Source of the DNA: Candidatus Latescibacterota bacterium
Lineage (GTDB): Bacteria; Latescibacterota; UBA2968; UBA8231
Assembly (NCBI GenBank): GCA_965223905.1
Contig: CBDCXV010000010.1
Coordinates: 960,001-1,024,000 of the forward strand
Direction of reading: 5' to 3'
DNA length: 64,000 nt
Made by a program: the position numbers and the translations under genes. Positions 11,979 through 54,374 of this stretch are shown one piece after another (position 1 is the stretch's first letter; each line of letters opens with the position of its first letter). Under the pieces are notes generated by a model, which was not told the DNA's origin, ran no database searches, and worked only from the letters and a program-made list of their open reading frames with translations.

Positions 11979-11991
11979 CCCCCTTGAGTTT

Positions 11992-23548: not shown

Positions 23549-23739
23549 TGCCGCGACTCCTCCCTCGCAAGTGTGCTTCCAATGGCGGCACCGGCTCGAC
23601 GATCCCTGGCCCGTCCGGAGAAAGACCGATCCGTAATGCCCATCTCCACGGTGACGTCCGTACATGAGAACCGGGCAGGCGCCGTGGAAGCGGTGCCTGC
23701 CCGGTGGAAATGGATGAAAGTTGGGTTAGGAACGAATCC

Positions 23740-24645
23740 CTACTCGATGAATTGCCCTTTTATCCGACCCCAACTCTCAGCTTCAACAGATGTCTGAGCG
23801 CCCCAACCGATGGTATCATCGTCTGGCGCCAGAAATAGATCCTGGACCGTAGAGTCTGTTGGAGAAAGCGACCACATTCCGATCCGGGCGTTTGGCTCGT
23901 CCGCCGGGTTGTCCGCCTCGTTGATAAAGATGCCGATGTGCACCGTTCCGCCCACTTCCAGGTCGCCGATGATCACCTCGTCTTCCGTCGCGTTATCGTC
24001 AATCGGCATTGAGTCGATGGGGTGTAACCGGATTTCGTAGTGGTAGGTGCTCTCGCCGAACTCCTCGCCCTCGAAGCTCCACCCGATTTGCACCCACTTG
24101 CTGCCGTTCTTCATCCACGGAAGGTTGACGACCGGGCGGAAAAACTCGAAGGCACCTTGGAGGGGGGGGAGGGCGTACTTGTAGGCGAAGCCCCTCGCTA
24201 TCCCGTCCACAGAGCCGGCGTCTTCCGAGGATATGTGGGCGAACATCAAATAGAATTCCGGACCATCGTCGAAGAAGAAGAGGCCGGGTTCCTCACGGGC
24301 GGTCACGTGAATATCGTCGAAGACGCTCGTCAGGTAGTAGATATTATTAGACGTGTCGTTCCAGCCGAACTTGTGCCATATCTGCAGCGACGCCGGATCC
24401 GGCAGGTTGTTGTCCCCCACAGTCCCCCTATCCTGCGGGATTCCGTTCGAAGGAACGTGGTGCTCCGGTCCCGCCCCGTACACGTCCCTGTCCACGGCTT
24501 CCCAGTCATTAATCAACCCGTCGATCACCGGGCGGTGCGTATCCGGGAACTTGACGGCATTGAGGGGCGGGCTGCCGTCATGGGCGAGGGCACTGCTGGT
24601 GAGAGCGAACGCTATCGCACTCACGATCGCCAGGTATTTCTTCAT
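23740..24645 (-). CDS. Secreted CBM9/DOMON-like protein with C-terminal TSVEAESWGRIK tail
   Basis: Signal peptide MKKYLAIVSAIAFALTSSALA, PVIDGLINDW, GWNDTSNNIY, VFDD, DGPEF; GGAGG RBS. Confidence 0.7.
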   Translation of the reverse strand: MKKYLAIVSAIAFALTSSALAHDGSPPLNAVKFPDTHRPVIDGLINDWEAVDRDVYGAGPEHHVPSNGIPQDRGTVGDNNLPDPASLQIWHKFGWNDTSNNIYYLTSVFDDIHVTAREEPGLFFFDDGPEFYLMFAHISSEDAGSVDGIARGFAYKYALPPLQGAFEFFRPVVNLPWMKNGSKWVQIGWSFEGEEFGESTYHYEIRLHPIDSMPIDDNATEDEVIIGDLEVGGTVHIGIFINEADNPADEPNARIGMWSLSPTDSTVQDLFLAPDDDTIGWGAQTSVEAESWGRIKGQFIE

Positions 24646-24799
24646 CACACAAACACCTCCTGCTCGGTGGTCTCTGCCACTCATGGGGTGATCACTGCGA
24701 TTTCGCAATTGCGACCGCAGTGTGATTTGACTCCTGCCCTCGTAAAAACAACAAGTTATGTCACTCAGAGGGCTGGATCCTTGGCTCTATTAACTGCTT

Positions 24800-24828
24800 A
24801 CGGTACGAAATCCGTCACCGAATGTCAA
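24800..24828 (-). promoter_or_regulatory. Putative sigma70 promoter for the CBM9-like gene
   Basis: TTGACA, 17-bp spacer, TACCGT on the minus strand in the 189-bp intergenic gap. Confidence 0.5.
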
Positions 24829-24834
24829 ACGAAT

Positions 24835-27573
24835 TCAGAAGTACGCTCCTGGAGCCGACACCGGCTTCCCGAGTCCGGCGTAGACCGTTATGAAGGACTG
24901 CGTCGTCGTCGTCGCCTCCAGCCCTTCGAAATCCTTGCGCTCGATCACCGCGCCGGCGAGGGCCTGAATTCGATATCCCAGATACTCCGACGAGGTACTG
25001 AACTGGAGTCCGTAGCTGATCGAGTCGAAGTCCTCGGCATCCCGGTCCACATCGTTGAAGTAGACGTACTCCACCCCGGCCTGGAGCCGGCTCCGCCGCA
25101 GGACCGGCACGGTCACCAATCCCGAAACCAGCTCCATCAGACTGGTGTGCTCCTGGGCGGCGAACAATCCCCGCGTCTGCTTGCGGAACTCGCTCTTCCA
25201 GCGCGGCTCGAGAGTCAGCCGCGCGAGTCTGTACTGGTAGCTCGCCTTGTTGATGGCGCCGAAGAAGGAATCCGTCTCATCCAGATTGAATCGCTGCCTC
25301 CGAGATGTGCTCATGAGCTGCCGAAAGGACACCCAGTTGAGCTGGTTCGACACATTCAGGGAGCCGGTCTCGAAGCGGTGCCCCACGAACAGCTGATTGA
25401 CCCACGTATCCCGTGCCAGCAACGGATCGTCCACCGCGGTCAGCGCGCCGCCCCGTATCGTCGTATCAGGCACCCACTGCAGGAGCGGGTTGGCGATATC
25501 GTCCTCGACGAGTTTCGACATTTCGAACACGCGCAGCCGGCCGTAACGGGCTGACTCGCCGTCGTAGTTCACGACGGCGTAGGTGCTGTGGTTGTGCCTG
25601 TCGGTGGATATCGACTCTTCCCTCAAGGCCCCCACCGACAACCTGAGCCCCGATGCGGCATCGAGCCCGATGTACATGTTGGCGCCACGGTGATCAATGG
25701 GGTACGGGTAGTCGGGCTGGTCGTCATTTTCGTAGAGATCTACCCAGAAGTTGTTGTTCATGTCGACGCCGAAGAGGAACTCGGGCCGGTCCACCGAGAA
25801 CCTGAGAAAGGGTTCCTCGAAATCCGGGATCGAGTTCATCTTGACGCGGTTGTCGTTCTGGTTGAAATCCGGCACGAAGTCGAGGTTCCGGTCCCACCCG
25901 GGGAAGACCTGGCGGTCCCGCGTGAACCAGTCAGCGCGGAAACTGTCCGGAATGCGGTCTTGGTCGTCGTTGTCCTCCACGAAATCGACGCGGTACCGAT
26001 CTCGCTCGTAGTCTACGATCCCCGACTCGTCCGCGGTGACGAAGGTCTGGGTATTGTAGGCGGGGTCCATGCTGTACGCCTCGCTGAACAAAAACCAGGG
26101 ATCGGCGCGCTTCGACAGGTTGACCATCCAGGCCGGCGCTCGTCTGTCCCCGCGGATGCCGGAGGCTGCGTCGTGGGTCTCCCTGACACGGTTCGGGTAC
26201 TTCCGATAGCTCCAGCTCAGATCGTACTCCGCGTACAGGTGCGCTCCCAGCACGTCGCTCACCCGCACACTGCCTCCGAGTACGTGAGTGCCCGTGGGGA
26301 GTCCGTACTCGAAGCTGACCGTTCTGAGATTGGAAATATCCTGGACGTTTCCCTCCGCGCTCGTCACCTTGAGGAACACCGGAGCGCTAGACAGGTCCGT
26401 CTGTCGGTCCGAGGAAATCCAGATCTCGTAGTCGTTGGCCAGGACGAGGCGAAATTCCACCTCGACGATCTCGGCCTTGTCGTTCTGGGCGCGGTTCACG
26501 AAGGCCGGGTCCTCGAAGTCGTAAGTCAGCCGGATCTCTTCTGTACCGTCGGCGACGATGAAGCCCTGCCTCCGTCGTCCTCCCTGGATCAGGGGTGCGA
26601 AGCGCAGCTCGTCGCCGGTGTCCACCGTGCCGTCCCGGTAGGTGACGATCACATCGGAGCCGGCCGGGAAGTACACGGCTCCACCAATGCCGTCCTCCGG
26701 CGAGTCGTCGCGCAGGATGACCTCGATGGTGGATACCGTCCGGTTCTGGCCCTCTGTGAGTGAGCCGGTCAGGAGATCCCCTAAAGGCTTGTCGACATTC
26801 GAGTTGGACTGATGGCCGTGAACGGTGTGGACTCCCAGTTCCACGAAGTCGCCGACCTGCGCCGTCAGCCGGCCACCGAGCAAAGTCGTGCTGTTCGTCA
26901 GTCGCCGCTCCCCCCCTTCCGTTTCTCGCGTTTGGTTGAACTCCGATTCGGTTCCTCTCGACGCGGTGAGTTGGGAGTAGATCAGGGTCGCCCGGTACTT
27001 GTCTGTGGCCAGATCGAGCTGCACGCCGTTGAGGCGCGGTTTGGACAGTACCATCGGAGTGAGCGTGGTGCGCAGATCGCTGCTCGCCGTCAGGGCGTAG
27101 CGGTATTGACCTTTCCCTTCCGAGGCCACGACCACGTTGTTGAACCATCCCTGGAACCTCACATCCCGGAAAATGGACGTGCCGGAGCCCTGGTTGTTCG
27201 CCTGTGACACGTTGTATACGAGCCATCCTCGATCCAGGAGGCGGCCGTACAGGTCGTAGAAGTAGTGTCCCTCGATGTCGGTGGGTACGTAACGCTCGTA
27301 GTTTCTTCTGGCGTAATTGGTGGACGCCCACTGCTGCCATCGGTGCTCCTCGAACAGCTCTTGCGGCACGTACCAGTTGCGCACCGCGGGATCGAGGGCG
27401 CCCATGCTCACGTAAGGCCCCTGGGCGAGAAAGTGTGTCATTCCCGCCTGCTGGAGGCCCAGTCTCCGGCCGTAATCCGGCTGACCGGCAGCCTCCGTCG
27501 TCATCCCGCCTACGCAGGCGGTGAGGAAGAGGAGACCGGAAACGGACCTGATTCTCGATTTCATCACAGACAC
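24835..27573 (-). CDS. ~900-aa secreted protein, predicted outer-membrane beta-barrel with Ca-binding-like loops (paralog B)
   Basis: Signal peptide, many alternating amphipathic beta-strands ending SFITVYAGL, DxNxD-type loops; clearly homologous to 31999-34665. Confidence 0.65.
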   Translation of the reverse strand: MSVMKSRIRSVSGLLFLTACVGGMTTEAAGQPDYGRRLGLQQAGMTHFLAQGPYVSMGALDPAVRNWYVPQELFEEHRWQQWASTNYARRNYERYVPTDIEGHYFYDLYGRLLDRGWLVYNVSQANNQGSGTSIFRDVRFQGWFNNVVVASEGKGQYRYALTASSDLRTTLTPMVLSKPRLNGVQLDLATDKYRATLIYSQLTASRGTESEFNQTRETEGGERRLTNSTTLLGGRLTAQVGDFVELGVHTVHGHQSNSNVDKPLGDLLTGSLTEGQNRTVSTIEVILRDDSPEDGIGGAVYFPAGSDVIVTYRDGTVDTGDELRFAPLIQGGRRRQGFIVADGTEEIRLTYDFEDPAFVNRAQNDKAEIVEVEFRLVLANDYEIWISSDRQTDLSSAPVFLKVTSAEGNVQDISNLRTVSFEYGLPTGTHVLGGSVRVSDVLGAHLYAEYDLSWSYRKYPNRVRETHDAASGIRGDRRAPAWMVNLSKRADPWFLFSEAYSMDPAYNTQTFVTADESGIVDYERDRYRVDFVEDNDDQDRIPDSFRADWFTRDRQVFPGWDRNLDFVPDFNQNDNRVKMNSIPDFEEPFLRFSVDRPEFLFGVDMNNNFWVDLYENDDQPDYPYPIDHRGANMYIGLDAASGLRLSVGALREESISTDRHNHSTYAVVNYDGESARYGRLRVFEMSKLVEDDIANPLLQWVPDTTIRGGALTAVDDPLLARDTWVNQLFVGHRFETGSLNVSNQLNWVSFRQLMSTSRRQRFNLDETDSFFGAINKASYQYRLARLTLEPRWKSEFRKQTRGLFAAQEHTSLMELVSGLVTVPVLRRSRLQAGVEYVYFNDVDRDAEDFDSISYGLQFSTSSEYLGYRIQALAGAVIERKDFEGLEATTTTQSFITVYAGLGKPVSAPGAYF

Positions 27574-27609
27574 CTTCGGGCGTCCTTCAGCGACATCCTG
27601 AAAAGGGCC

Positions 27610-29748
27610 TCAGTACGCGAGGGAAACCACGCCGGTAGCCACCTGGCGCTCCTCGTCCGCATCGACATCGACGGCGAAGAGGTAAATACCCGGCGGCACC
27701 GGGCGGGCGGCAGCGTCCTTCCCGTCCCAGGATTGCTTTCCGGGTAGCTCCACGACGAGTTGGCCCGACAGCGTGTAGATCTTCAACGCGGCCTGTGTTT
27801 CGACGTTGCGCAGATTATATGAAAAGGTCACCTCGTCGTTGATCCCGTCCCCGTTCGGCGTGAATACGGCCGGGGTCGCTGGCAGCCCCAGAATCAGGTC
27901 GCCGCCGATGGGGGTCTTCACAGTGAGAACATCTCCGCCGACATCGACCGTGGCATTCCCCTCGTTGATCCGCTGCTTCACAAAGGGCGCATCGCTGTCG
28001 TAGACCCAGCCGGCGAATTCCGCGCCGTAGCGCAGTACCTTCGCGTCGAACACCACCTTTACGATCTTGAAATTGTCCCGCCCCGGATCCCCCCCCAGGG
28101 GGTCGAAACCCACGATGATGCGGTCGTCCTGGATGTCATACGGTACTCCCTGACGGAACTCCACTCCGGCCAGGTCTTTTTCCAGGTCTTCCTCCGGCCA
28201 CGCACCGATCAACTCCGCCCCTCCCACGTTCACCGAGTCCACCCGCCCCGCCCGGACTCCGGTGAGGATCTCGAGTCGGTCGAACCCCGTGACCTCAGAG
28301 TCAGAGCCCGGACGGCCGAAATAAGGGCTTATGAAGTAAGTGAACGTGTGCGGCTCGAAACTGTCCGTCTCGATCGGCCAGATCTCTCCGGTCACGTCCT
28401 GCGCTGCCGGCTGGTCGCTGAACAGAATCGACAGTTCGTCCAGCCGTGGGGGGTCGCCGCCGCGATCCGCGATCATGACGATCTCGAACTGGAGGAACCG
28501 ACTCGGACTGGGGGAGAGTACGGGTGTCCCGTCGGACCACTCCTCGGCCGGCACGGCCGGATCGCGCAGTCCGGCCTCGAAGTCGTAGGGCTCTGACCAG
28601 AACGCCCAATTGTCCACATCGGGGGAACTCTTCAGATGAGCGAACGCTTCCCCTCCAATTCTGTCGGTTGTGTAAGGTTGGACACCCCTCCACTGCTGCA
28701 GGTAATCTTCGGCAGTCACCGGCTCGAACGTGCCGGTATTCCCGAGTGCGAAGTACAGGTTCGGATCGTCCGTCTTCCCGGTGCGGGTTCGGAAAAGCAC
28801 GCTCGTGCCTGGAGGCTGCTCGCCATCCCAGCGTATCTTGCTCCAGGCGACGGGCCTGTCGGAATCCCCGCCGAAATCCAGAATCCCGCTGCGGTAGAGT
28901 GTCCGGGTCACGAACCCTTCGCCGTAAACCTCCAATTCGGCGACCTCCCAGTCGCGCTCCGGATCCAATGGACGCAGCGCGACCCAGCGCACGTCCCGCG
29001 TGGGAAAGGTGAGGTCCACATCCGCATCCAGGTTCTCCCGCGTGCTCGCCAGGATGTCGAGAGACGGATCGTTGGGCTCACCGATGGGGATGCTGTCGAA
29101 GATCCTGCCGCCGATGTGGCGATACCAGTGCCTCGTGGGGCTCACCTCGCGGTGCGAACGCACGAGAGGCGCCGAATCGGCGGCAACCCCGATCTCGTAC
29201 CACTGGAGATAGTTGTCTTCGAAGCCTGGCCGCGGGTAGAAGCGAATTCGATTCACCGGCAGTTCGACGCCGAGGTTGAGCACACTGTTCTGGATCCACG
29301 CATTGTTGATTCCGTCTACGAACGGAGAGACCGGCACCGGCCTGAACATGGCCGTCGTCGGATCGCCGTCGATCATATCCCGGAGCGTCTTCGACTCCTC
29401 TTGTACGTACGCGCGGTGGCTACTCGGCATCAGATGGCCTCCCCGCCCCTCTGCGGAGAGAGCGAGGTTTTCGTCGGGAAAGATTTCCAACGGCCGGATG
29501 GAACCGCCCGAATAGTCGAGCACGGTGGCTTCGCCCGGGTAGGCTTCGCCCGGGTGCTCGGGTACGGTGGTGACCTCCACGGATTTCAGGACTCCCCCCT
29601 CCTCATCGACGAGGACATAAGTGCCCGTATGCTCTTCCATGAACTCCCGCCACCCGATGCCGTCTCCACCCAGTCTGAATTCAGCGCGCCCTCCCCATAC
29701 AGCGGTGTGAAAGGCGATTACGACCAACAAGCCGAGAAATAGTGCCAT
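27610..29748 (-). CDS. Secreted discoidin-like protein with C-terminal CHU_C/FlgD-Ig domain (paralog 3)
   Basis: Signal peptide; MIDGDPTT, LNLGVELPVNRIRFYPR, RTRTG, GEIWP, FTPNGDGIND, WDGKD..VPPGIY; ends SLAY. Confidence 0.8.
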   Translation of the reverse strand: MALFLGLLVVIAFHTAVWGGRAEFRLGGDGIGWREFMEEHTGTYVLVDEEGGVLKSVEVTTVPEHPGEAYPGEATVLDYSGGSIRPLEIFPDENLALSAEGRGGHLMPSSHRAYVQEESKTLRDMIDGDPTTAMFRPVPVSPFVDGINNAWIQNSVLNLGVELPVNRIRFYPRPGFEDNYLQWYEIGVAADSAPLVRSHREVSPTRHWYRHIGGRIFDSIPIGEPNDPSLDILASTRENLDADVDLTFPTRDVRWVALRPLDPERDWEVAELEVYGEGFVTRTLYRSGILDFGGDSDRPVAWSKIRWDGEQPPGTSVLFRTRTGKTDDPNLYFALGNTGTFEPVTAEDYLQQWRGVQPYTTDRIGGEAFAHLKSSPDVDNWAFWSEPYDFEAGLRDPAVPAEEWSDGTPVLSPSPSRFLQFEIVMIADRGGDPPRLDELSILFSDQPAAQDVTGEIWPIETDSFEPHTFTYFISPYFGRPGSDSEVTGFDRLEILTGVRAGRVDSVNVGGAELIGAWPEEDLEKDLAGVEFRQGVPYDIQDDRIIVGFDPLGGDPGRDNFKIVKVVFDAKVLRYGAEFAGWVYDSDAPFVKQRINEGNATVDVGGDVLTVKTPIGGDLILGLPATPAVFTPNGDGINDEVTFSYNLRNVETQAALKIYTLSGQLVVELPGKQSWDGKDAAARPVPPGIYLFAVDVDADEERQVATGVVSLAY

Positions 29749-29771
29749 GATATGTGCTCCTGCTTCGTCGC

Positions 29772-31967
29772 TCAGTACGCGACTGCTATGGTGCGCATGA
29801 CCTCGCTCGAGCGGGAGTCGCCGTCTACGGCGACGCGGATCAGATACAGTCCGGGCGGGACGACCCCACCCTGCTCATCCGTGCCGTCCCACGCCAGCTC
29901 GGGGAAGAGGTCCGAGGTGTACAACCCGTTCTGATCATCCAGCTCGAGAAGCTGACGCACCCGTCGACCGGACAGGTCGAACACCTCCACGGCGATGACG
30001 GATGTGCCGACGACCTGCAGCACCTCGAACTCCAGATCGAGGCCGTCGTTGACCAGATCGCCGTTCGGAGTCACCACCGGCGAGCCGAGTGCTAAGTTGG
30101 CGATGAGATTTTCGCCGGCCACCGACGGACTCAACACCGTGGCCCCTGATTCGGTGGAGATATCGGCCTCGTGCAGCTGTGTCGCGTCACCGGAAACGGC
30201 GCTCTGGAAAGCGTCCTCTGCCCGCAGGATGGCGCGGCTGTCGAAAACAGAGCTGTAGGCCAGCGCGCGGGCCACGAAGTGCAACTTGATGACGGTCCCG
30301 GATTCTCGGATGTGGGGAAAGCTGACGGCAAACCCCCTCGCCGTGAACGACGTGATCATCGGCTCCCCTTCCTCGCCATCAATCGTAGGACCGTCCTGAG
30401 TTTCAAAGACGTGGTCGATGTCCTTGCTGCTATCCCGATAGAGGATTTCGATGCGCTCCAGCCTGCTCACTGGAGCGCCGGTGAACAGCTCCAAGCCGTC
30501 AAACCCCTGAAGCCCTTCGCTATCCATCTCCGTCCGCAGCGCGTAGACGAAGGAAACATCAGTCGCCGGACTCACTCGACGGGGGAAAATTTCCCCTACG
30601 AGCGCGCCGGCCAGGGCCGGTGTTGTAAAATCGAAAGCCAGATTCCGCAGGATGTGGGTCGATTCCAGATCGGTCGTCAGAAAATCGACCCGCACATGAA
30701 AGTATCGGCGCGGTCCCGGTGAGACGATCCTCGCCCCGGTGGGACTCGTGCCTTGTTCGGACCGGTACGGGGGCGACCACGGGCTCCAGTTTTCCAGATC
30801 GTCTCTCACGGAGCCGCGCTCCCATTCGTCGTCCGACCTCCCCTCACCCCTCGGGGAAAGTCTACGGTATTCACTCCGCTCGAGCGGTTCGTCGGGACTT
30901 TCTACAGATTCGGAAAACTCGGGCGCGTCCTTGAGCCCGACTTGCTTCCTCGTATAGGAAAGGGGGGTCTCGTCCCGTCCCGTGCGCGTGCGGATTTCCA
31001 GCCTGGCCTGTCTCGGATCGCCTATCGTCTCCTGCTCCCATCTGAGCTGGCCCCAGGCCGCCGAAGCGGTCTTTATCTCGATGATCGGTGAGTAATACCG
31101 GGCCGCCGGGAAGTACCCTTCGCCGAACACCTGCAGCTTCTCGATCTCGAAGGGGATGGAGGACGTGGCCTGTAAACGGATGAAGCGGATGAGGCGAGGC
31201 GGGTCGATGTCGACTACGGCAACCGGGTCGGGATTGTCCGTGACGCTTGCGTAAGTCTCCCAGATCGGGTTGCCCGCAGCCGTCAAGTTCACACCGTCGT
31301 TGATCCTGAGGTCGAAATTCCTCAGAAAGTCGTCGTGAAACGGAGCGAGGGGATTGGGGAACTCCGTGTTGCGCGGAAAGAATCGGACTGCATTGACGCC
31401 CACACGGCTGCCCAGGTCGAGGATGAGATGGGCACCGTTGATGGGATACGCTTTGCGTTCGAAAGCCACTCCGGTACCGGTTACGTCGGCTTCCGGGGAG
31501 ATCACCTGTTCGAGAAGCCTCTCGAGCCTGTCTCGCTCGCTCCCCGACGCCACGCCGGCGAAACTGCTCGGAGAGGTAATCCCGCCTCCCCGGTTTTGGA
31601 TTTCGGCGGCCAGATTCTGACCCTCCCCTACTCGTTTGGGCAGGATGCCCTCGGGAAAATCAGCGCTCTCGAAATCGATCAGCGGCTCGACGAAAGGACG
31701 GTCGCTGGCGGACCGCGGCAGGGTGTACCCTACCTGCGAGAAGTTCGGGTCGACGGGTGAGCGGTACTCGGGCTCGATGGCCGCGATCGCGTCGTCGGCG
31801 ACCTCGCCTCTCCAGGTGGTCCGACCACTTGGCCCGAAGGTCACGACTTCACGAGCGCCCAGAATCTGCAGCGACAGGAGGACCAGGAGGAGACTGCCCG
31901 CCAAGACGCTCTCGGGAAAACACCGCCTCGAGCGCTGGCCGAAGAGCATGGGAACGCGGCTTTTCAT
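29772..31967 (-). CDS. Secreted discoidin-like protein with C-terminal CHU_C/FlgD-Ig domain (paralog 2)
   Basis: ATG at 31967 with GGAGG; LDLGSRVGVNAVRFFPR, RTRTG, WSPWS, GEIFP, VTPNGDLVND, WDGTD..VVPPGLY; ends AVAY. Confidence 0.8.
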   Translation of the reverse strand: MKSRVPMLFGQRSRRCFPESVLAGSLLLVLLSLQILGAREVVTFGPSGRTTWRGEVADDAIAAIEPEYRSPVDPNFSQVGYTLPRSASDRPFVEPLIDFESADFPEGILPKRVGEGQNLAAEIQNRGGGITSPSSFAGVASGSERDRLERLLEQVISPEADVTGTGVAFERKAYPINGAHLILDLGSRVGVNAVRFFPRNTEFPNPLAPFHDDFLRNFDLRINDGVNLTAAGNPIWETYASVTDNPDPVAVVDIDPPRLIRFIRLQATSSIPFEIEKLQVFGEGYFPAARYYSPIIEIKTASAAWGQLRWEQETIGDPRQARLEIRTRTGRDETPLSYTRKQVGLKDAPEFSESVESPDEPLERSEYRRLSPRGEGRSDDEWERGSVRDDLENWSPWSPPYRSEQGTSPTGARIVSPGPRRYFHVRVDFLTTDLESTHILRNLAFDFTTPALAGALVGEIFPRRVSPATDVSFVYALRTEMDSEGLQGFDGLELFTGAPVSRLERIEILYRDSSKDIDHVFETQDGPTIDGEEGEPMITSFTARGFAVSFPHIRESGTVIKLHFVARALAYSSVFDSRAILRAEDAFQSAVSGDATQLHEADISTESGATVLSPSVAGENLIANLALGSPVVTPNGDLVNDGLDLEFEVLQVVGTSVIAVEVFDLSGRRVRQLLELDDQNGLYTSDLFPELAWDGTDEQGGVVPPGLYLIRVAVDGDSRSSEVMRTIAVAY

Positions 31968-31998
31968 ATTCCTCCGTCTCCTCAGGAATAACGCGACA

Positions 31999-34665
31999 CT
32001 AGAGACCCGCGTAGATGGTGATGAACGATCGGAATGTCGTGCGCGCTTCCGTCTCCTTGAAATCCGTGCGCTCGAGGGCGACTCCCGCAAGTGCGTTGAT
32101 CTCGTAGCCCACATAGTGTGACCGATTGGAGAGCTGGAGGGCCACGGTCGCCGAATCGAAGTCGTTCCCCTTCACATCGAAGTCGTTGAACAAGGCATAC
32201 TCGATGCCGGCCTGAAGGCGACTCGATCGGAGGACGGGTGTCTCAGCGAGGCCCGAAAACAGTTCCATCAGACTCTCACGAGTGTCGAGCGAGAAGAGGC
32301 CGCGGGTCTGCCGCCGATACTCGCTTTTCCAGCGCGGCTCCACGGTCCAGCGTCCGAGCTGATAGCGGTAGCTGGCTTTGTTGACGATTCCGAAAAAGTA
32401 GTCGGATGCATCCAGTCCGAATTCCTCGCGCCGGGACTTTTTCATCAGTTGGTGATAGAGCACCCAGTTGAGTTTCGATTGGATAAGCAGCGACCGCCCC
32501 TGCAGATTGTGACCGAGGAAGATCTGGTTCACCCATGTCTCCCGTGCGAGGAGGGGGTCTTCCACCCTGGTGAGCTCCCCACCCGACAAGGTGTTGTCCG
32601 GCGCCCACTGCAGCAGCGGGTCAGCTATGTCGTCCTCGACCAGTTTGGTCATTTCGAACATCCGCACGCGGCCGAGCTGCGGCAGGTCCTTCGTCATCGA
32701 CACCATGGCGTACGACGCGCGGTTCTCCTCGTGCCCGGAGATCAACGCTTGCCGCAAAACCCCCACGGTCAGGCGCAACTCCGGCGTCAGCTCGGCCCCG
32801 CCGTATAGGTTGAACCCCTCGTGGCCCCGCTTATAGGGATAGTCCGGTTCCTCGTCGTTCTCGTACTGGTCGACCCAGAAATTGTTGTTCATGTCCATGC
32901 CGAACAGGAATTCTGGCCGGTCGGCGTGAAACCGCAGGAAGGGTTCGTCGTGGTCGGGAACTGTGTTGGAGCTGACCACATTGTCATTCTGGTTGATGTC
33001 GGGGACGAAGTCTCCGTTCTGATCCCATCCGGGGAAGACCCTCAAGTCCCCGGCACGCCAGTCAAAGCGGATGTTGTCCGGCCGCGAATCGAGATCGTCG
33101 TTGTCGTCCACCAGCTCCACCCGGCCCTCACGCGCGCTTTCGTAGTCGATACTCCCCGTCGACGACGTCACGAAGGTGCTCGTGTTGTAGGCCGGATCCA
33201 TATGAAAGACCTCGCCGAAGACGAACCACGGATGATTCTTTTTCGAGACGTTGATCATCCAGGCCGGTGCGCTCCGCTGACTTGCGATGCCCGACGATGT
33301 CTTGTGGGTCTCCTTTGCCGCGTTGGGGTATTTCCGGTAACTCCAGCTTCTGTCATATTCGCCGTACAGGTCGAACCCGCGCGCATCGCGCACCTCGATG
33401 CTCGCCCCGAGGACATTCGTGGCCGTGGGCAGGCCATAGGCGAAGCGCACGGTCCGCAGGTTGGTGACGTCCTGCACATTCCCCTTCGCCTGGGTCACCA
33501 GCAGAAGCACCGACCGCTCGTCTTTGTTCGTCTGTCGGTTGGATGTCATCCATACCTGGTAGTCGTTCGCAAGGACCAGCTCGAACTCTACCTTGACGAT
33601 GTCTTCCTTCTGGAACTGCGCCGCATCCACGAATGAAGGACTGTCGAAATCGTAGAGCAGCCGGATCTCCTCTGTCCCGTTAGCGGCGATGAACCCCTGT
33701 TCGACGAATCCGCCCTCTATGATCGGCTCGAATTGAAAGTCCTTTCCCCGTTGCACACTACCGTCCCGATAGGTGATGATGATGTCCGAGTCGGCGGGGA
33801 AGTAGGCAGCGCCACCGACGCCGTCCTCAGGGGAGTCATCCCGCAGGGCGACTTCGACGAGTGAGATGGTCCTGTTCTGCTGCACCGTCATCAGCCCCGA
33901 AAAGGGGTTCCCGGCGAGCTTGTCGGTCAACGTGTTCGATTGGTGGGCGTTGACCATGTGGACCCCGAGCTCGACGAAGTCGCTCACCTGAGCCGTCAGA
34001 CGTCCACCGAAAAGAGCGGTGCTGTTCGTGTGCTGTGACTCGAGATCACGGGTCGAAAGGCCGCCCGGGCTGCTGATCCTTGAGTAGATGAGGGTTCCTT
34101 CATAGCGGTCGGCGGCGAAGTCGAACTGCACACCGTCCCAGCGCGGTTTGGAAAAGACCATAGGGGTCAGCACCGTGCGCAGCCGATTGCTGAGCGTCAG
34201 GGCGAAGGAGTACTGGCCGCCGGCGTCGGCGGCCACGACCACTCCTGAAAACCACTGGGAGAACTTATCCGATTTGAATAGCGTGTTACCGAACTGGAGC
34301 GGCCGGGTCTGGGCGTTGTTGTAGATGAGCCAACCCCGGGTCACCAGGTTGCCGTACAGATCGTAGAAGGTGTCCCCCTCAAGGCTGATATCGACATACC
34401 GCTGGTAGTGGTCTCTGGCGTAGTTGGTGTATTCCCACTGACGCCAGCGGTAGTCCGTGAACAGCTCCTGCGGCACGTACCACTTGCGCACTGCCGGGTC
34501 CATGACTGCCAACAGGACCCCGGGACCCTGTGGTACGAAACTGGCCTCTGGCCCCCGCTGCAGACCGAGGCGCGTAGCGTAGTCCTCTTGACCGTACGCC
34601 GGCTGTGCGCTCAGGCCCTCCAGGACGATGACGAGACCGGCCAAGAATAGAACCCTTGGTCTCAC
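31999..34665 (-). CDS. ~900-aa secreted protein, predicted outer-membrane beta-barrel (paralog A)
   Basis: Signal peptide MRPRVLFLAGLVIVLEGLSAQPAYG; shares DPAVRxWYVPQELF, LRDDSPEDG, RKYPN, DMNNNFWVD, EPRWKSE with paralog B; ends FITIYAGL. Confidence 0.65.
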   Translation of the reverse strand: MRPRVLFLAGLVIVLEGLSAQPAYGQEDYATRLGLQRGPEASFVPQGPGVLLAVMDPAVRKWYVPQELFTDYRWRQWEYTNYARDHYQRYVDISLEGDTFYDLYGNLVTRGWLIYNNAQTRPLQFGNTLFKSDKFSQWFSGVVVAADAGGQYSFALTLSNRLRTVLTPMVFSKPRWDGVQFDFAADRYEGTLIYSRISSPGGLSTRDLESQHTNSTALFGGRLTAQVSDFVELGVHMVNAHQSNTLTDKLAGNPFSGLMTVQQNRTISLVEVALRDDSPEDGVGGAAYFPADSDIIITYRDGSVQRGKDFQFEPIIEGGFVEQGFIAANGTEEIRLLYDFDSPSFVDAAQFQKEDIVKVEFELVLANDYQVWMTSNRQTNKDERSVLLLVTQAKGNVQDVTNLRTVRFAYGLPTATNVLGASIEVRDARGFDLYGEYDRSWSYRKYPNAAKETHKTSSGIASQRSAPAWMINVSKKNHPWFVFGEVFHMDPAYNTSTFVTSSTGSIDYESAREGRVELVDDNDDLDSRPDNIRFDWRAGDLRVFPGWDQNGDFVPDINQNDNVVSSNTVPDHDEPFLRFHADRPEFLFGMDMNNNFWVDQYENDEEPDYPYKRGHEGFNLYGGAELTPELRLTVGVLRQALISGHEENRASYAMVSMTKDLPQLGRVRMFEMTKLVEDDIADPLLQWAPDNTLSGGELTRVEDPLLARETWVNQIFLGHNLQGRSLLIQSKLNWVLYHQLMKKSRREEFGLDASDYFFGIVNKASYRYQLGRWTVEPRWKSEYRRQTRGLFSLDTRESLMELFSGLAETPVLRSSRLQAGIEYALFNDFDVKGNDFDSATVALQLSNRSHYVGYEINALAGVALERTDFKETEARTTFRSFITIYAGL

Positions 34666-34704
34666 TGTTCCCTCCCTTCCTCGGCCAGCCGGGTACGGCC
34701 CCGG

Positions 34705-34755
34705 CTGATCCGGGCACTCATGATCCAGGTACTCAGCTCATGATCCAGGTACTCA
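34705..34755. repeat. Short tandem repeats overlapping the stop codon of the 1086-aa gene
   Basis: ctcatgatccaggtactca at 34717-34735 and 34737-34755, plus a degenerate tgatccgggcactca upstream. Confidence 0.85.
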
Positions 34756-37700
34756 ATACACGAGGGCGACGACGTGCGTGCGTTTTTCGCTGGCGGCGTC
34801 CGCCTCGATGTCGATCTGACAGGCGTAGAGGCCGGGCGGCAGCAAGCGCCCGCTGTCGTCCTCTCCGTTCCAGTCGAAGGTCTGCGGGCCTGCCAATGCC
34901 CGCCGCTCGGGGAGAGTGCGCACCAGCCGTCCGTCCAGGGAGAAAATCCAGACTGTCACAGGCCGTAGCGCCTGTACCCTGAACACGGAAAACCCGATGT
35001 GGACGACATCGTTTACGCCGTCCCCGTTCGGCGTAAACGGATTCGGGGTGATCGCCACATCCTCGATGACCTCGTCGGCGCCCGATACGCCGATGGACAG
35101 CCTCTGTCCCGGCGTCAGATTCGTCGCGTCTCCCGAATCGGCCGGCAGCCAGGGCGACGCCGTGCCGCCCTCCCGAACCGCCACTTCGAGCTCAGTCCCG
35201 TGTCGGTACACGGTGCCGGAGAGGCGTACGCGGACCAGCCTGCCCCGCCCCACTCTCCATCCCCTGTCCCCTCGCCGAAGCCTGGTGTACTCGCTCGCGC
35301 TGAGTGAATCACCCTGGTCGTTGAAGGCGGCTTGCTCACCTGCCGCGGTGACTCTGCGAAAATAACGGATGGGCCCCTTTTCTTTTTCAGACAGCTCCCC
35401 GTACTCGTCGGCGTCGACTTTCTCCAGTCGGGCTTCCTCCCCCTCGCCTGATATGCGGAAATAGCGCGTCGCCCCGAGCTGGTCTGGAGACTCTTCAGCC
35501 AAGCGCGCATAGGAGGTGGCCGTCAGGATCCGGCCGTCCGTTCCCACCGGCACCTGTAACGTGTCTGTGTCACTGGGTGAGACGTCCCGGTAGTAGATCT
35601 GTGGCAGCACATCGGCCGATGCGGCCTCGACGAGCACCGGGAAGCGCAGCAACAGCGAGTCGCCCCCGTCCCCCGCGACGGCGAGGACACTGCCCGCCGA
35701 GCTCGCGAGCCCGTCGGCGTGAGCCAGGTCGAACAGCTGCTCCGGCTCCCCGCGCGCCAGCTCCTCCTCGGTGCCCACCGCCACCTCGACTATGGACAGG
35801 TCGATGTGCGGTTGCGACGAGACCAGCACCTCGTCGAACCCCGGGGTCTTCACATCATCGGGTTCCTCGATGAACGTGGGCGCCAGATAGACCGCGAAGG
35901 TGTCGAGCAACCCCGCGCGGGTCTGCTCGGGCCAGATCTCTGCGGCCAGGCTCCGGACCACGGGAGTGTGAAACTGCACCTCGAGGCGCTCCAGCGCCGG
36001 CACGGCATCCGGCCCGGGGAGGAGACGCGCCTGGACCATCATGTACTTTCGCAGACCTGGCGAACTCGCCTGCTGCCCGGAGACGGTGTGCTTCCTGCTC
36101 CACGGGCTCCACCCCGCTCCCGTCACGAGCGAGGTGTCGATGGGCCCCTTCTGGAAGCTCTTCTTGTACGCCGCAGCGCTTCCCAGGTCGAGTCCGGCTT
36201 TGGAGTAGTAGGTCACGACCTGCCTGATCTGATCACCTGTGCGCGTGCGGATCTCGACCGCCGACGCGCCCGGCGTCTGCGCCTCCCAGCTCACCTCTCC
36301 CAGAGTGACCGCTCCAGGCAGCTCGATCAGATCCGACTCGAGCACGACCTCGGCCGGGGCCCGCGTGGAGAAGGCCATGATCTCCTGTATTCCTACCTTG
36401 AAGAAGTATGCGCTCTCCGGGCTCCCGGGGTTGTTCATAAGCGTCACCAGCTGCAAAAACCTCAATTGACGCGCCGGTGTGACCGGGTCCATGATATAAG
36501 GAGGCAAGAATCCGCCCTCCTGTTGCGCGCATATGGCCTGCGGCGGACACACTCCTGCCGTTCCCCCGCCGAGCCGATCCAGAGAGCTGATCTGCTCCCA
36601 CACCAATTCGCCGCTCACGTCCCGCGCACCGGAGGATCCCCGGAGGCTGTATCCACGCAACCGGGACCCGCATTCCGGTGGGCACTCCGTCGTTACACCA
36701 GCGGTCAGGCGGATGTGATCCACCCAGACATCGGCACCCAGATCGATTTCCACCACCCCTCGATCCGGGTCCCTGCTGTACTGCGATAGATGTTCGTAAT
36801 GAGTACTCAGGTTGCCGTCAAAAGCCTCCTCAGGCTTGCCACGGGATTCGTCATCTGGGTCGGCGAAGCCGACAGATCCCCCCCCCTTCGCCAGATTCAT
36901 GGCCACATTGTCTCCCCAGCCCCAGGCCTCGACCTCGGCCAATCGGGGTAACTCCCGCCGATAATACTCCCGCCGTCCTTTGCGCTCATCGTCGAGGTCC
37001 GCCCACGCGTCCGCCGGGCTCGCCTCCCCGTCCGCCGGGATGGGCTCCTCTCGACCAGCGATATCCCTGACGAAATAGACGATGTCACCCCGGTCGGCGA
37101 CGACGATGTCATCCCGCTTATCGGGAAGGGCCTCCCATTCCTCCTGGGAGATGCGCTCGGCCCGACCGGCGCGCGTGTCCGTGACGACGATGCGGATCGT
37201 CTCGATCACCTTGCCTGTCCAGTCCTCGTTCGACTCCTGCTGAACGAGCCGCTCTTCCTCTGGCTGCGTGGTCCCCTCAAAGCTCGCCGACTGCCGTTCA
37301 CTGACGAATTCGAACTCCCGTTGCGCCGTGTTGGGTGCGTCCAGCGGCGCCAATGTCTCGAATGCCAGCCCCTCTCTCCGAAAAAGCTTGACCGCCGGCG
37401 CCTCCGTAGCTGCCTGAGCTCCCGACAGCCGCAGGATGTAGTTGTAAAAGGGGTCGCCGAGCGCCGCGTCCACGAACTGGAGCCGCAGCCGTTCGACCGG
37501 TACCGGACGACCCAGGTCCACCTCGACCCACCAGCTGCTCAGCGGATCGCTCGGGTCCGGCTCCCAGAACGTGTCGGGATCATCATCCACCAGGTATTTC
37601 GCCAGATGCGGATTGGAGCCGGCTCGGCTCGCACCCGGTCTGACGAAGTAGTCGTAGCCCACGAGGATGCCCTTCAGCAACTTCTCGGTGCTGTCGACGT

Positions 37701-38013
37701 TCATGATGCGCGGGCTCTCGCCCGAGATATCGACCCGGCGCTCGATGCTCGTGTCCGAAAAAATCTCGTACACGCCCCGCAGTTTCCGAGGCCGAACCAC
37801 TATCCGGGACGCATCCTCCTCGGTCTCGCCGATGCTGACGAAGTTCGCCGGATAGGTCCACTGCTCCCAGGCGCGCCCCTCCACAACAACTTTGGTGCGA
37901 CTCACGTCGTGGCCCTTCTGCGCGGCCGCGGGACCCACATCCGTCGCACACCACAACCAGCAACAGGCCGACATCAACGCAACCCGAGAATCGTCTATCT
38001 TCAGCCTCGCCAT
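34753..38013 (-). CDS. Large secreted protein with two discoidin-like domains and a CHU_C/FlgD-Ig C terminus (paralog 1)
   Basis: LVDDDPDTFW..WWVEVDLG, AFDGN..VVEIDLG, RTRTG, WSPWS, AEIWP, FTPNGDGVND, WNGED..LLPPGLY; ends ALVY. Confidence 0.82.
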   Translation of the reverse strand: MARLKIDDSRVALMSACCWLWCATDVGPAAAQKGHDVSRTKVVVEGRAWEQWTYPANFVSIGETEEDASRIVVRPRKLRGVYEIFSDTSIERRVDISGESPRIMNVDSTEKLLKGILVGYDYFVRPGASRAGSNPHLAKYLVDDDPDTFWEPDPSDPLSSWWVEVDLGRPVPVERLRLQFVDAALGDPFYNYILRLSGAQAATEAPAVKLFRREGLAFETLAPLDAPNTAQREFEFVSERQSASFEGTTQPEEERLVQQESNEDWTGKVIETIRIVVTDTRAGRAERISQEEWEALPDKRDDIVVADRGDIVYFVRDIAGREEPIPADGEASPADAWADLDDERKGRREYYRRELPRLAEVEAWGWGDNVAMNLAKGGGSVGFADPDDESRGKPEEAFDGNLSTHYEHLSQYSRDPDRGVVEIDLGADVWVDHIRLTAGVTTECPPECGSRLRGYSLRGSSGARDVSGELVWEQISSLDRLGGGTAGVCPPQAICAQQEGGFLPPYIMDPVTPARQLRFLQLVTLMNNPGSPESAYFFKVGIQEIMAFSTRAPAEVVLESDLIELPGAVTLGEVSWEAQTPGASAVEIRTRTGDQIRQVVTYYSKAGLDLGSAAAYKKSFQKGPIDTSLVTGAGWSPWSRKHTVSGQQASSPGLRKYMMVQARLLPGPDAVPALERLEVQFHTPVVRSLAAEIWPEQTRAGLLDTFAVYLAPTFIEEPDDVKTPGFDEVLVSSQPHIDLSIVEVAVGTEEELARGEPEQLFDLAHADGLASSAGSVLAVAGDGGDSLLLRFPVLVEAASADVLPQIYYRDVSPSDTDTLQVPVGTDGRILTATSYARLAEESPDQLGATRYFRISGEGEEARLEKVDADEYGELSEKEKGPIRYFRRVTAAGEQAAFNDQGDSLSASEYTRLRRGDRGWRVGRGRLVRVRLSGTVYRHGTELEVAVREGGTASPWLPADSGDATNLTPGQRLSIGVSGADEVIEDVAITPNPFTPNGDGVNDVVHIGFSVFRVQALRPVTVWIFSLDGRLVRTLPERRALAGPQTFDWNGEDDSGRLLPPGLYACQIDIEADAASEKRTHVVALVY

Positions 38014-38025
38014 GGCGTTACCTCC

Positions 38026-39704
38026 TTACCCGAGACGGTCGGCGTAGAGCACGACCTCCTCTTCGTATTTTTCGCGCAGTCCCTTTATGAGTTCGCTGAT
38101 GAGCTCGGTCTCGCGCCGCTGCCGCAGCATCCCTGCGGCCCGCCTGCGGACCTGCTCGAACGGCTGAAGTTCCCCTCCCTCGCGCCTGAGCAGGCGAAAG
38201 ACGGCGTATCCATCATAGCTCTTGATCGGACCGATGAGCTCGCCCTCTTGCGCCTCGAATGCGGCCTCTACGAGCTGCGGATGACGGGCGCGCAGGAGGC
38301 GTATCACCTGCATCTCTCCGGTCTCGTGGTCTCCGTGAGTCCTGACGCCGTCGCGGCGCAGGAGCTCCGGGATGTCGACGCCCCGCTCGATCTCTGAGCG
38401 CAACCCCTCGGCCTCTCCTTCGCTGCCGGCCACGACCTCGCGAATATACACCTTTTCCTGGCTCACGAAACGGTGCTTGTTCGCGAGATAGTACTCCCGG
38501 ACCTCTTCCTCGGAGGGACTGGTATGTCCGGCAGTCTCCATTTTCGTGAGATTCGTGAGAATGACCTGCGTCCTCTTGAGCTCGTACCACTCGGTGAACG
38601 CGGGTTCCCGGTCCCATCCCCTCTCCTTGGCGGCCAGGGAAAATACGAGTGGATGGAGGAGTAAGCTCTCGGCAGTCTCCACGAGATAGGCGCTGTCTGT
38701 GAACGCTATCCCTCCGAGCCCCTCGTCGTGCAGGTTCGCCACCAGATCGCCCACTGTGGTTTCGCCGCCGGCGAGACTGTACACCATCCGGTCGGCATCA
38801 TCAGCCGACAGCTCGAGCTCGCGAAGCGGACCGGTCTGGGTCAACAACACCCCTAGCCCCTCTTCGTGCAAACGCAGGTCATACCGGTGGCTCAGCAGTT
38901 CGAATTCCTCGACCACCGCTGCATGCCCCTTCTCCTGTCCGAGCAACCGCCGGATGTCCTTTTCGTATCTCTCCAGCTCGGCGGCCCGGCTGTCGAGGAA
39001 GCGATATACCTGCCAGGCACCTGGGTGCCGTACAGGCTCTGCCCGTTCACCATCTGCGAGTGAGAGGAAAACCCACTTCGGTATCTGGAAGTTCCTCTGG
39101 GCCGCAGGAAGCCCGATCCATCCCACGAGGCCGGATTTGTCGGCAAACAGGTCGTTGTCATCGTAGTGCTCGGCGATCGCCTCGAATGCGTCCCCCTCGT
39201 CGAGCCGTCGCAAAACATCATCGAGCTCGTCACGTCGACGGACCACGATGCGACTGAACAGTCGCTCGCGGTTGAATCCTTTCTCTATGAAGGCGCGCTC
39301 GACCTCTTGCTGAGTAGCCTGCGTTCGGGGCGCGATCATTTCGTCGCGGTAGCGGCCCGTCAGACGCTCCCTGACCAACCTCTCGAGCTTCCGCCTCACG
39401 GTGGAGCTGGTGTCCACCCCCCGGGCCCGTGCCTCCAACAGCATCAACTCCTGGTCCACCGCGGACCGCAGGTGCTCCAGGTCGGCCTCCCGTCCCTCCT
39501 TGCCACTGAGAAGTCCGGAAGGCAATCGATCAACGAAACGCTTGAACTCCGATGCCGTGATGGCGGCGTCTCCGACCTTCGCCACGATTTGCTCTCGGGG
39601 CTCGCATCCGGACGACACCAAGAGACCTGCCGCTAGACACAGTAGGAGCGTATTCAAAAGGGAGGAATTTGAACGCAATGCGAGGAATTTGAACGCAATG
39701 CCAT
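38026..39704 (-). CDS. SurA/PrsA-like parvulin-domain lipoprotein chaperone; native ATG put out of frame by a 20-bp duplication
   Basis: Lipobox-like LLVSSG-C, VAKVGDAAIT, two parvulin-like domains (FEAIAEHY..GLVGWI; AAFEAQEGELIGPIKSYDGYAVF). ATG 39704 is out of frame; an in-frame TTG lies at 39678. Confidence 0.8.
39662..39701. repeat. Perfect 20-bp tandem duplication
   Basis: gaggaatttgaacgcaatgc at 39662-39681 and 39682-39701. Confidence 0.95.
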
Positions 39705-39712
39705 GAGTGGGA

Positions 39713-40199
39713 GAGGTATTGTCAAATGTTGTGGATGAGGTGGATTCATTCCCAGGCTGACGGGGCCGCGGAAAGGGAGCGTCGGTAACCTTGGGATCAT
39801 TCAGGCCGCCTCTTTGAGGATCCGCTCTCCCTCGCTGAAGGTTTCCCCCTGCAGCAAGTGGGTGGTCAGCGGATAGCCGATGAGACGGCGCCAGTGTTTC
39901 TCCGTCTCGGTAGCCAGCTTGAAGACCATCGTCAGGGTCGTGATTCGGGATCCACAACCCTTGGTCTGACTAGTGCGGTGGCGCACCGGGGCAAAAAGGC
40001 CGACTCGATCGGGTTGGTAGTGCACAGGTGCCGCCACTGGGCGGCCGGGAAGTCGTAAAACGTGAACAACACCTCCTCGTCCTTCTCCCCCTCCAGGGGG
40101 TTGTTGGGTTATGGGTTACCTGAGGATACGCTCCTTTCCTTTGTATCGTCTACCCGGAATTCTTCGACCTCGCGATCCACAACTTTCTAAAATAGCTCC
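39713..40199 (-). mobile_element. Internally deleted IS256-family element
   Basis: Imperfect IRs gaggtattgtcaaatgttgtggat and gagctattttagaaagttgtggat; flanking agtggga at 39706-39712 and 40201-40207. Only the transposase C terminus remains (FYDFPAAQWRHL.TTNPIES..VRHRT..TKGCGS). Confidence 0.82.
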
Positions 40200-42968: not shown

Positions 42969-42974
42969 CGTTAA

Positions 42975-49691: not shown

Positions 49692-49743
49692 TCTCTGCCT
49701 TCCGATGCCCGGGATTGGCCGCCACCAGCGAATTAAAATTTCA

Positions 49744-54328: not shown

Positions 54329-54374
54329 CGTTGCCTGCCGCCTTCCATCCTCCAACCGGGTTAAAAGAGAAGGA

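Follow-up and report, generated by a model that had tools for sequence, protein, structure and literature searches.

A 64,000-nucleotide stretch of a Candidatus Latescibacterota bacterium genome (assembly GCA_965223905.1, contig CBDCXV010000010.1, positions 960,001 to 1,024,000; hereafter the window) carries seven co-oriented genes. They encode a peptidyl-prolyl isomerase (PPIase), a lectin-like protein termed cargo 1, a barrel protein of about 900 residues (barrel A), cargo 2, cargo 3, a second barrel (barrel B) and a CBM9-like protein (Table 1). We find that these genes are one copy of a surface module conserved in Latescibacterota, in which barrels are encoded beside cargo proteins whose tails form a separate class of C-terminal domain (CTD), related to the type B CTDs known from type 9 secretion systems (T9SS). 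Tentatively, we suggest that the barrels could stand in for PorP/SprF as carrier and anchor of lectins delivered by the T9SS, forming a glycan-capture complex.

Copies of the module are abundant in the genome to which the window belongs (7.9 Mb, 93.6% complete). Its 35 barrel paralogues are distributed over 21 clusters, none of which lacks a cargo-like gene. If the 60 paralogues of the cargo type, the 19 of the PPIase type and the 9 of the CBM9-like type are added, 123 open reading frames (ORFs), or 3.4% of the genome, are accounted for. The gene directly upstream of a barrel encodes a cargo protein in 19 of 35 cases and another barrel in 9. We also collected 76 related loci from public genomes, almost all labelled Latescibacterota; three checked records labelled ‘Gemmatimonadetes’ coincide with genomes of the window’s own family. 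The full seven-gene order on one strand is found in 24 of these loci, a single barrel is a frequent variant, and a cargo-like gene lies beside the barrel in 73, the three exceptions being loci truncated by contig ends. Clustering of barrels with cargo (35/35 barrels in the genome, 73/76 related loci) is thus far beyond chance, and the adjacency on which the original prediction relied extends to other genomes. The one-to-one pairing of cargo and barrel that it had envisaged does not: in the modules, one or two barrels accompany three types of cargo, and in a distant clade a single cargo goes with three barrels. Barrel copy number is approximately 20–50 per genome.

In a quick tree, the 35 barrels of the genome split into a clade of 21, found in modules like that of the window, and a clade of 14. 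The 14 distant paralogues (~30% identity) occur in tandem triplets with position-specific orthology, and their neighbours are a cargo-like gene, a TPR/YfiO-like protein of ~1,100 residues, DUF4159, a TonB_C protein, ExbB, ExbD and a PPIase. Sequence comparison and the quick tree both place these ExbBD-linked barrels as distant members of the module barrel family. FG-GAP/UnbV_ASPIC proteins, often with or beside TPR proteins, also recur beside modules of several genomes (L045:200-5069, L051:18087-21128, L065:3186-6920, L080, L081).

The three cargo proteins of the window share the motifs RTRTG, EI(W/F)P and TPNGDxxND and a final Tyr, exactly as first reported (RTRTG at 589 and EIWP at 692 in cargo 1; RTRTG at 327 and EIFP at 460 in cargo 2; RTRTG at 320 and EIWP at 455 in cargo 3). 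A discoidin domain had been ascribed to all of them; it is Pfam-significant in cargo 1 (F5_F8_type_C_2, 3.3e-10), and cargo 2 and 3 have no Pfam-significant discoidin domain. Cargo 1 also matches CHU_C (7.2e-6; its CTD alone scores 32.2 bits, cut-off 27) and FlgD_ig (7.9e-6), and the profile of its orthologues matches FlgD Ig domains in the PDB. Cargo 3 matches CHU_C at 2.7e-10 (40.7 bits, cut-off 27), and the whole cargo 2 protein matches FlgD_ig weakly (3.6e-4). Across the 34 module CTDs compared, cargo 2’s included, the Pfam family CHU_C (PF13585), the signal of T9SS type B, is detected in every one at E≤0.01 (best 1.7e-14); FlgD_ig is matched almost as often, in 33. The NCBIfam type B model TIGR04131 matches 29/34 at E≤0.01 and the type A model 25/34, mostly under their curated cut-offs. 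The TIGR04131 cut-off (35 bits) is reached neither by cargo 1 (18.7 bits, or 24.4 for the CTD alone) nor by cargo 3 (32.5), and cargo 2 has no match to this model at E≤0.1.

A comparison within the genome sets the module tails apart from the others. We identified 152 ORFs ending in a CTD-like domain, comprising 56 module cargo proteins and 96 other proteins. The motif PNGDxx(N/D)D is present in 46 of the 56 cargo proteins and in none of the 96 others; the last residue is Tyr in 53 of the former and Arg or Lys in 86 of the latter. The C-terminus of the cargo proteins is a hydrophobic strand whose last residue is aromatic. Judged by these sequence features, the cargo tail is a separate class, which we call the class-2 CTD; it is related to the T9SS type B CTD and distinct from it.

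The class-2 CTD and the barrel are distributed together across the phylum. In a sample of 168 genomes, the barrel is found in 105 and the class-2 CTD in 106; 104 have both, 61 have neither, and the three discordant genomes are 68%, 75% and 94% complete. The two features are therefore concordant in 165 of 168 genomes, in keeping with the co-occurrence that the original prediction had anticipated, and their tallies per family are identical save in one family (0/5 vs 1/5). SprA, in turn, is detected in 163 of the 168 genomes, including 101 of the 105 with a barrel and 60 of the 61 lacking both barrel and class-2 CTD. Because SprA is nearly universal, module-less genomes included, type 9 secretion is phylum-wide and the module an addition in some lineages.

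In the window’s own genome, SprA is present as a single copy (607.6 bits summed over one frame), accompanied by PorU (617 bits) and, directly after it, by a PorV-like gene (91 bits, under its cut-off). PorP/SprF (TIGR03519, PF11751) has no match in this genome; the control genomes were silent as well, so that absence is not proven. None of the 168 phylum genomes exceeds the PorP/SprF family cut-off of 90.55 bits, the best score being 52.7. We also considered a complementary distribution of PorP and the module barrel and rejected it, as sub-threshold PorP-like hits are scattered in 25 of the 168 genomes without such a pattern.

The original prediction described the ~900-residue proteins as barrels far larger than PorP, with no evident TonB plug, and sequence searches agree with it on these points. 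Barrels A and B match no Pfam or NCBIfam family (NCBIfam at E≤0.1), and comparison with PDB sequences, by single sequence and by profile, gives chance-level matches only (E 0.55 and 0.027). Among 30 family members scanned with Pfam at E≤5, no family occurs in more than one member. PF11751 is found in none of them, and neither PF11751 nor TIGR03519 matches the module barrels. Plug (PF07715), TonB_dep_Rec (PF00593) and TonB-box matches are likewise lacking in barrels A and B and in the 30 members. The usher family PF00577 has no Pfam match in the barrels, and the folding factor of the module is a parvulin rather than a PapD-like protein; Usher and PapD-like families went unmatched because no Pfam model matched at all. 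The barrel family itself is large: a word-indexed search returned 914 relatives among 8000 scored candidates, and an exhaustive search of cluster representatives returned 714 clusters at E≤0.001. Nearly all of the 120 matches listed are 830–930 residues long, without Pfam domains, and called ‘hypothetical protein’ where named. Barrel B is 58% identical to barrel A, and the two are sisters in the quick tree of the genome’s 35 paralogues (SH-aLRT 100).

An AlphaFold2 model of barrel A built from 90 sequences down to 25% identity (pLDDT 84.7, pTM 0.82) replaced an earlier run on 30 close sequences (pLDDT 61.8), in which the N-terminal third was unmodelled. By our own count from DSSP, the model comprises ~24 long antiparallel strands, with a predicted beta-sandwich inserted at residues ~269–375, after the sixth strand. 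A second insert (~496–610) has little regular structure and is rich in Asp and Asn (VDDNDDxD..., NQN..., ENDxxPDYPY); it is the most conserved part of the family and, by its sequence, appears calcium-site-like. Residues ~22–92 are aromatic-rich and modelled with low confidence. Within residues ~60–110 (window ~34336–34488), aromatics are spaced one or two apart (WYVPQELF, YRWRQWEYTNY); aromatic motifs of such spacing are bound by SurA. This N-terminus might be the docking place of the module PPIase.

Searches with both models of barrel A, using Foldseek and VIA-align, return outer-membrane barrels only, and no family stands out among them. SlpA (7zgx_A) gives the longest whole-barrel alignment and the top Foldseek E-value (Z 13.1, 443 residues aligned, rmsd 8.1), with a TM-score of ~0.18. 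Ushers also rank high, namely FimD (3rfz_E; Z 12.3, 338 aligned, rmsd 5.9), 9bog_D (Z 11.8, 346 aligned) and PapC (2vqi_A; Z 10.7, 316 aligned). LptD, MtrB, TonB-dependent receptors and porins align partially at Z 9–13 (porins Z 12–13), TonB-dependent receptor matches ranging over Z 8–12, and SprA (6h3i_A) is a weak match (Z 10.3, rmsd 18.2). The fold of TonB-dependent transporters is a barrel of 22 strands whose lumen holds a plug. The nearest Atlas cluster with a family, DUF6029 (a TonB-receptor-like barrel), scored 0.88, under the trustworthy level, and was kept as a lead only. Since the fold matches are generic and none is outstanding, we assign the barrel to no family. On the strength of the model, the proteins are real outer-membrane beta-barrels for which a described family is not detectable.

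The accessory genes of the module are similarly widespread. The PPIase has clear parvulin domains (Rotamase_2 1e-16, 62.2 bits; Rotamase 1.3e-7). Its likeness to SurA is weak (SurA_N_3 16.6 bits, cut-off 27.2; NCBIfam SurA model E 0.046), and the NCBIfam PPIase/EpsD/PrsA models all score under cut-off. The gene accompanies the module in 57 of the 76 related loci, and most of its 19 paralogues in the genome lie in modules, which agrees with the idea of a dedicated chaperone put forward at the outset. The CBM9-like protein has no Pfam match even at E≤10, including PF06452 (CBM9_1); its nearest ESM Atlas clusters carry PF06452 in 13%, 37% and 100% of their members (scores 0.98, 0.96 and 0.93), and its gene occurs in 56 of the 76 loci. 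An eighth gene, encoding a membrane protein with PMT_2 and TPR domains, directly follows the first barrel in 55 of the 76 loci (e.g. L003:12593-14536). In the window it is missing from that place, and a paralogue lies 7.7 kb upstream, past several transposase genes. This gene hints at glycosylation of cargo or barrel.

In Bacteroidota, according to three reports, type B substrates depart from the translocon on carriers of the PorP/SprF type, whose genes lie beside those of the substrates, and the carriers then anchor these substrates at the surface (PMC12618676; PMC9143113; PMC10994853). Because the module combines a type-B-like tail with an adjacent, co-distributed barrel, and no PorP was found, a carrier and anchor is the simplest reading of the barrel. 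Under this tentatively favoured explanation, the three paralogous lectin-like proteins, each with a putative discoidin region, a middle region that is conserved and an Ig-like domain at the C-terminus, would be exported by Sec and would cross the outer membrane through the SprA type 9 translocon by means of their tail, a distinct relative of the type B CTD. The adjacent ~900-residue barrel would then take over the cargo and hold it at the surface in place of the Bacteroidota PorP/SprF. The PPIase lipoprotein, together with the TPR/GT-C membrane protein in most relatives, may help to fold, dock or modify barrel or cargo in the periplasm. The SprA translocon itself contains a PPIase subunit, whose function is unknown, as well as a TPR lipoprotein and a Skp-like chaperone (PMC10994853). 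The CBM9-like protein would add a sugar-binding subunit, and the complete complex would capture glycans or glycoconjugates, here plausibly sialylated ones. We thus infer passage through SprA, binding of the CTD by the barrel, a chaperone role and glycan capture; more speculatively, captured material might also pass through the large, insert-bearing barrel, making import possible. The original prediction had taken the system to be analogous to, and non-homologous with, that of Bacteroidota. For the cargo side this view does not hold, as the cargo tail is homologous to the type B CTD (CHU_C in 34/34) and the genome encodes SprA, PorU and a PorV-like protein. Because the tail is related to the type B CTD and these components are present, it is more likely that the system extends type 9 secretion than that it stands apart.

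Several observations weigh against the barrel as a carrier and anchor. The search for T9SS parts proposed in the original prediction yielded SprA, PorU and the PorV-like gene and no GldM; GldM was silent in the control genomes too, so its absence is not proven, and because it was not found the T9SS energy chain lacks confirmation here. No SprA match was obtained in four genomes that have the barrel, one of which is 96% complete. Related genomes share ancestry, so that only a small number of independent gains or losses lies behind the co-occurrence of barrel and class-2 CTD. Contact between CTD and barrel has no direct support: a complex prediction for barrel A (residues 22–888) with cargo 1 (960–1086), both with alignments, scored 0.00 with controls not run, and is uninformative either way. 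The barrel is about three times the size of PorP/SprF, and its two conserved inserts are not obviously needed by an anchor. Cargo-to-barrel ratios vary (3:2, 3:1, 1:3), and carrier–substrate pairs in Flavobacterium are mostly one-to-one. The location of the distant barrels beside ExbB, ExbD and a TonB_C protein points to energised transport over anchoring. Lastly, as regards glycans, no glycoside hydrolase, lyase or esterase domain was detected at E≤1e-6 in 37 ORFs that flank the modules of 12 related loci or lie between their genes, in a survey whose flanks mostly stop just past the last module gene, short of the downstream region that contains the sialidases in the window.

Some of these points suit a barrel that is chiefly an energised import channel, comparable to SusC or other TonB-dependent transporters, with the lectins and the CBM9-like protein as surface binding partners that use the CTD only to exit through the T9SS and are held at the surface by other means. 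We consider this unlikely. In its favour, the barrel is large, with ~24 strands in the model, and its most conserved part, the Asp/Asn-rich insert, could gate or plug the pore; the ExbB, ExbD, TonB_C and giant TPR proteins clustered with the distant paralogues would fit such a channel, as would the DUF6029 lead. The scale of the system, with 21 clusters and 3.4% of the genome, resembles that of polysaccharide utilisation loci, the window neighbours are sugar-related (sialidases, GFO/IDH/MocA, a xylose-isomerase-like TIM barrel, DUF6785/6784 and GH32), and the intact sialidase has, by reading, no signal-like N-terminus. An import channel of this type is nevertheless at odds with the lack of any Plug, TonB_dep_Rec or TonB-box match, given that the same models found ~25 ordinary TonB-dependent receptors at other loci of the genome. 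The window module holds no ExbBD or TonB gene, the flanking ORFs surveyed in relatives include no glycoside hydrolase (0/37), and the exact tracking of the barrel by a special CTD class is left unexplained. A related and likewise doubtful proposal is that the barrels constitute a third outer-membrane nutrient machine beside TonB-dependent transporters and porins. They would be calcium-gated ~24-strand channels with T9SS-delivered lectin lids docked through the CTD class, an older branch would have its own ExbB–ExbD–TonB-like motor, and the whole would be a Latescibacterota equivalent of SusCD with 20–50 specificities per genome.

It is less probable still that the module is a self-contained export system of the chaperone–usher kind, in which the PPIase would keep subunits competent, the barrel would serve as a dedicated pore or platform, and the class-2 CTD would target the barrel instead of SprA. 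Ushers rank high among the whole-barrel fold matches (FimD, 9bog_D, PapC), and the modelled beta-sandwich follows the sixth strand by the DSSP count; the usher plug is located between strands 6 and 7 of a 24-strand barrel. The folding factor for the periplasm that 57 of 76 loci encode, a cargo end with a hydrophobic strand and terminal aromatic residue, and the 96%-complete genome with barrel and class-2 CTD and no SprA match would also suit such a system. The usher fold scores, however, are tied with those of many unrelated barrels (SlpA Z 13.1, porins Z 12–13), neither Usher nor PapD-like families were matched, and the chaperone is a parvulin instead of an Ig-fold protein. The cargo proteins are multi-domain proteins of 700–1100 residues whose tail is homologous to T9SS CTDs, and SprA is present in 101 of 105 barrel-positive genomes. 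Least probable in our judgement is an adhesive or protective coat, with the barrels as abundant structural anchors like SlpA of Deinococcus and the discoidin proteins binding sponge matrix or other cells. SlpA is the best whole-barrel match by aligned length and Foldseek E-value, near-identical DNA occurs in sponge- and seawater-metagenome runs, and many module flanks lack degradative enzymes; sponge Latescibacterota are reported to be rich in attachment-type and eukaryote-like proteins (PMC8163846). The likeness to SlpA is generic, though, as its TM-score indicates, and the Pfam scan gave no SLH-type match. Twenty-odd diverged copies per genome suit many specificities better than one coat, and the window neighbours are catabolic.

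The layout of the module, re-read from the ORF coordinates, has the gene order, strand and spacing first described, with gaps of 12, 87, 28, 23 and 36 bp among the first six genes (Table 1). The N-termini of the module proteins have hydrophobic, signal-like stretches, judged by reading the sequence only. A 20-bp tandem duplication puts the ATG of the PPIase gene at 39704 into the wrong frame; its signal peptide could still begin at a TTG in the right frame, at 39678. Either true variation or a fault of the assembly could account for the duplication, and a DNA search of two same-genus genomes for it gave no match. Two sialidases had been noted downstream, and Pfam assigns both to BNR_2, the first being frameshifted. 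The pieces of the broken gene match residues 7–176 (72.5% identity) and 200–307 (69%) of its intact paralogue, and then diverge.

Table 1. Genes and other features of the window, with the distant barrel clusters of the same genome.
Feature	Position	Strand	Description
Module	23740-39957	-	Seven co-oriented ORFs (ORF list); order PPIase, cargo 1, barrel A, cargo 2, cargo 3, barrel B, CBM9-like
PPIase	38026-39957 (ORF)	-	643 aa; parvulin-type, SurA/PrsA-like, probable lipoprotein (LLVSSGC)
Cargo 1	34753-38013	-	1086 aa; N-terminal discoidin domain, conserved middle region, type-B-like CTD, final Tyr
Barrel A	31999-34665	-	888 aa; signal peptide, N-terminal stretch rich in aromatics, predicted ~24-strand beta-barrel, two inserts
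Cargo 2	29772-31970	-	732 aa from Met at 31970; type-B-like CTD, final Tyr
Cargo 3	27610-29748	-	712 aa; type-B-like CTD, final Tyr
Barrel B	24835-27573	-	912 aa; sister of barrel A
CBM9-like protein	23740-24708 (ORF)	-	301 aa from Met at 24645; exported
Broken sialidase gene (BNR_2)	22494-23665	-	At least two reading frames; Pfam on both pieces
Intact sialidase	21217-22392	-	391 aa; Pfam BNR_2 1e-34, BNR_3 7e-21
PMT_2 (GT-C-like) and TPR membrane protein	47649-49793	-	Pfam TPR families, PMT_2 9.7e-9
20-bp tandem duplication	39701-39682 and 39681-39662	-	Perfect copy, directly after ATG at 39704
Distant barrel clusters (L077-L084)	C10:2096001-2130000, C1:1486001-1520000, C2:270001-308000, C11:896001-930000		Own genome

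The surroundings of the module also include, in addition to the sugar-related genes named above, an arabinofuranosidase C-terminal domain found by Pfam. DUF6785/DUF6784 membrane proteins are encoded three times in the window (1512-3515, 9981-12041 and 11992-13856), one copy being split in two ORFs, and again upstream of the orthologous module in two relatives (L003:873-2819; L009:2141-4084). Insertion-sequence genes lie upstream of the module (40664-46597, 49875-51138 and 52991-54364), namely a DDE transposase, two IS481-like integrase copies and a split ISL3 transposase. The window module may be rearranged because of them. At the start of the window, positions 51-1013 hold an ORF for a group II intron reverse transcriptase/maturase (RVT_1 and GIIM).

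Near-identical DNA was found in sequencing runs of 11 studies, including runs labelled as seawater and sponge metagenomes. In one sponge study, three RNA libraries yielded contigs, mostly ≥99% alike, that cover parts of every module gene. They are compatible with expression of the module, and contigs of this kind cannot show transcription, strand or operon structure; their lack of cover over 21000-22300 proves nothing. Sponge-associated Latescibacterota are reported to be rich in glycoside hydrolases, with GH33 sialidases among the sponge-enriched families (PMC8163846).

Latescibacterota are widespread uncultured degraders and sponge symbionts, and the module takes up 3.4% of this genome with a central protein that has no family name. 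By title and abstract, with supplements excluded, we found no paper on the module, nor one joining Latescibacterota with type IX secretion. If the barrels do carry type-B-like cargo, the T9SS outside Bacteroidota would use a different and far larger class of shuttle, and the rule that type B cargo needs a cognate barrel encoded next to it would predate the PorP/SprF family and apply more widely. If they also import, they would be a novel path by which polymers are taken up through the outer membrane. The barrel family merits a model in domain databases, and the number of its copies may serve as a marker for the range of substrates in the phylum.

Among known systems, the SusC/SusD loci of Bacteroidota resemble the module in having a large barrel gene adjoining genes for surface glycan-binding proteins, in their many diverged copies and, in the window, in the glycan-degrading neighbours. 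Unlike them, the module has no Plug or TonB-receptor domains and no SusD-like match among its scanned proteins; its partners carry T9SS-type tails instead of lipoprotein signals, the surveyed flanks of relatives are without glycoside hydrolases, and ordinary TonB-dependent receptors are encoded elsewhere in the genome. Chaperone–usher systems (FimC–FimD, PapD–PapC) likewise have genes for a large barrel, for several subunits that are paralogues of one another and for a folding factor of the periplasm in one place, and the usher fold is among the best matches of the barrel. The module differs in its parvulin chaperone, which is not PapD-like, in the lack of an Usher match, and in subunits of 700–1100 residues with T9SS-type tails. 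The SprA translocon, with its PPI subunit, the SprE TPR lipoprotein and a Skp-like chaperone, also associates a giant barrel with a peptidyl-prolyl isomerase and a TPR protein (PMC10994853). In the genome studied here, SprA occurs once, whereas there are 35 copies of the module barrel. SprA has 36 strands and ~2,000 or more residues, against ~24 predicted strands in the module barrel, with which it shares no sequence match and only a weak fold match.

The type B substrates and PorP/SprF carriers of the T9SS, such as SprB–SprF of Flavobacterium johnsoniae and PG1035–PorP–PorE of Porphyromonas gingivalis, share with the module a CTD that matches CHU_C, a barrel gene beside the substrate gene, the presence of translocon and PorU/PorV-like genes, and substrates that resemble surface adhesins or lectins. 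In contrast to PorP/SprF, the module barrel is 888–912 residues long, lacks a PF11751 or TIGR03519 match and has two inserted domains in the model. Its cargo tails form a separate subclass with a terminal Tyr, and three substrate types share one or two barrels. Finally, the module also includes genes for a PPIase and a CBM9-like protein, in many cases for a PMT_2/TPR protein too, and is repeated in approximately 20–50 copies per genome.

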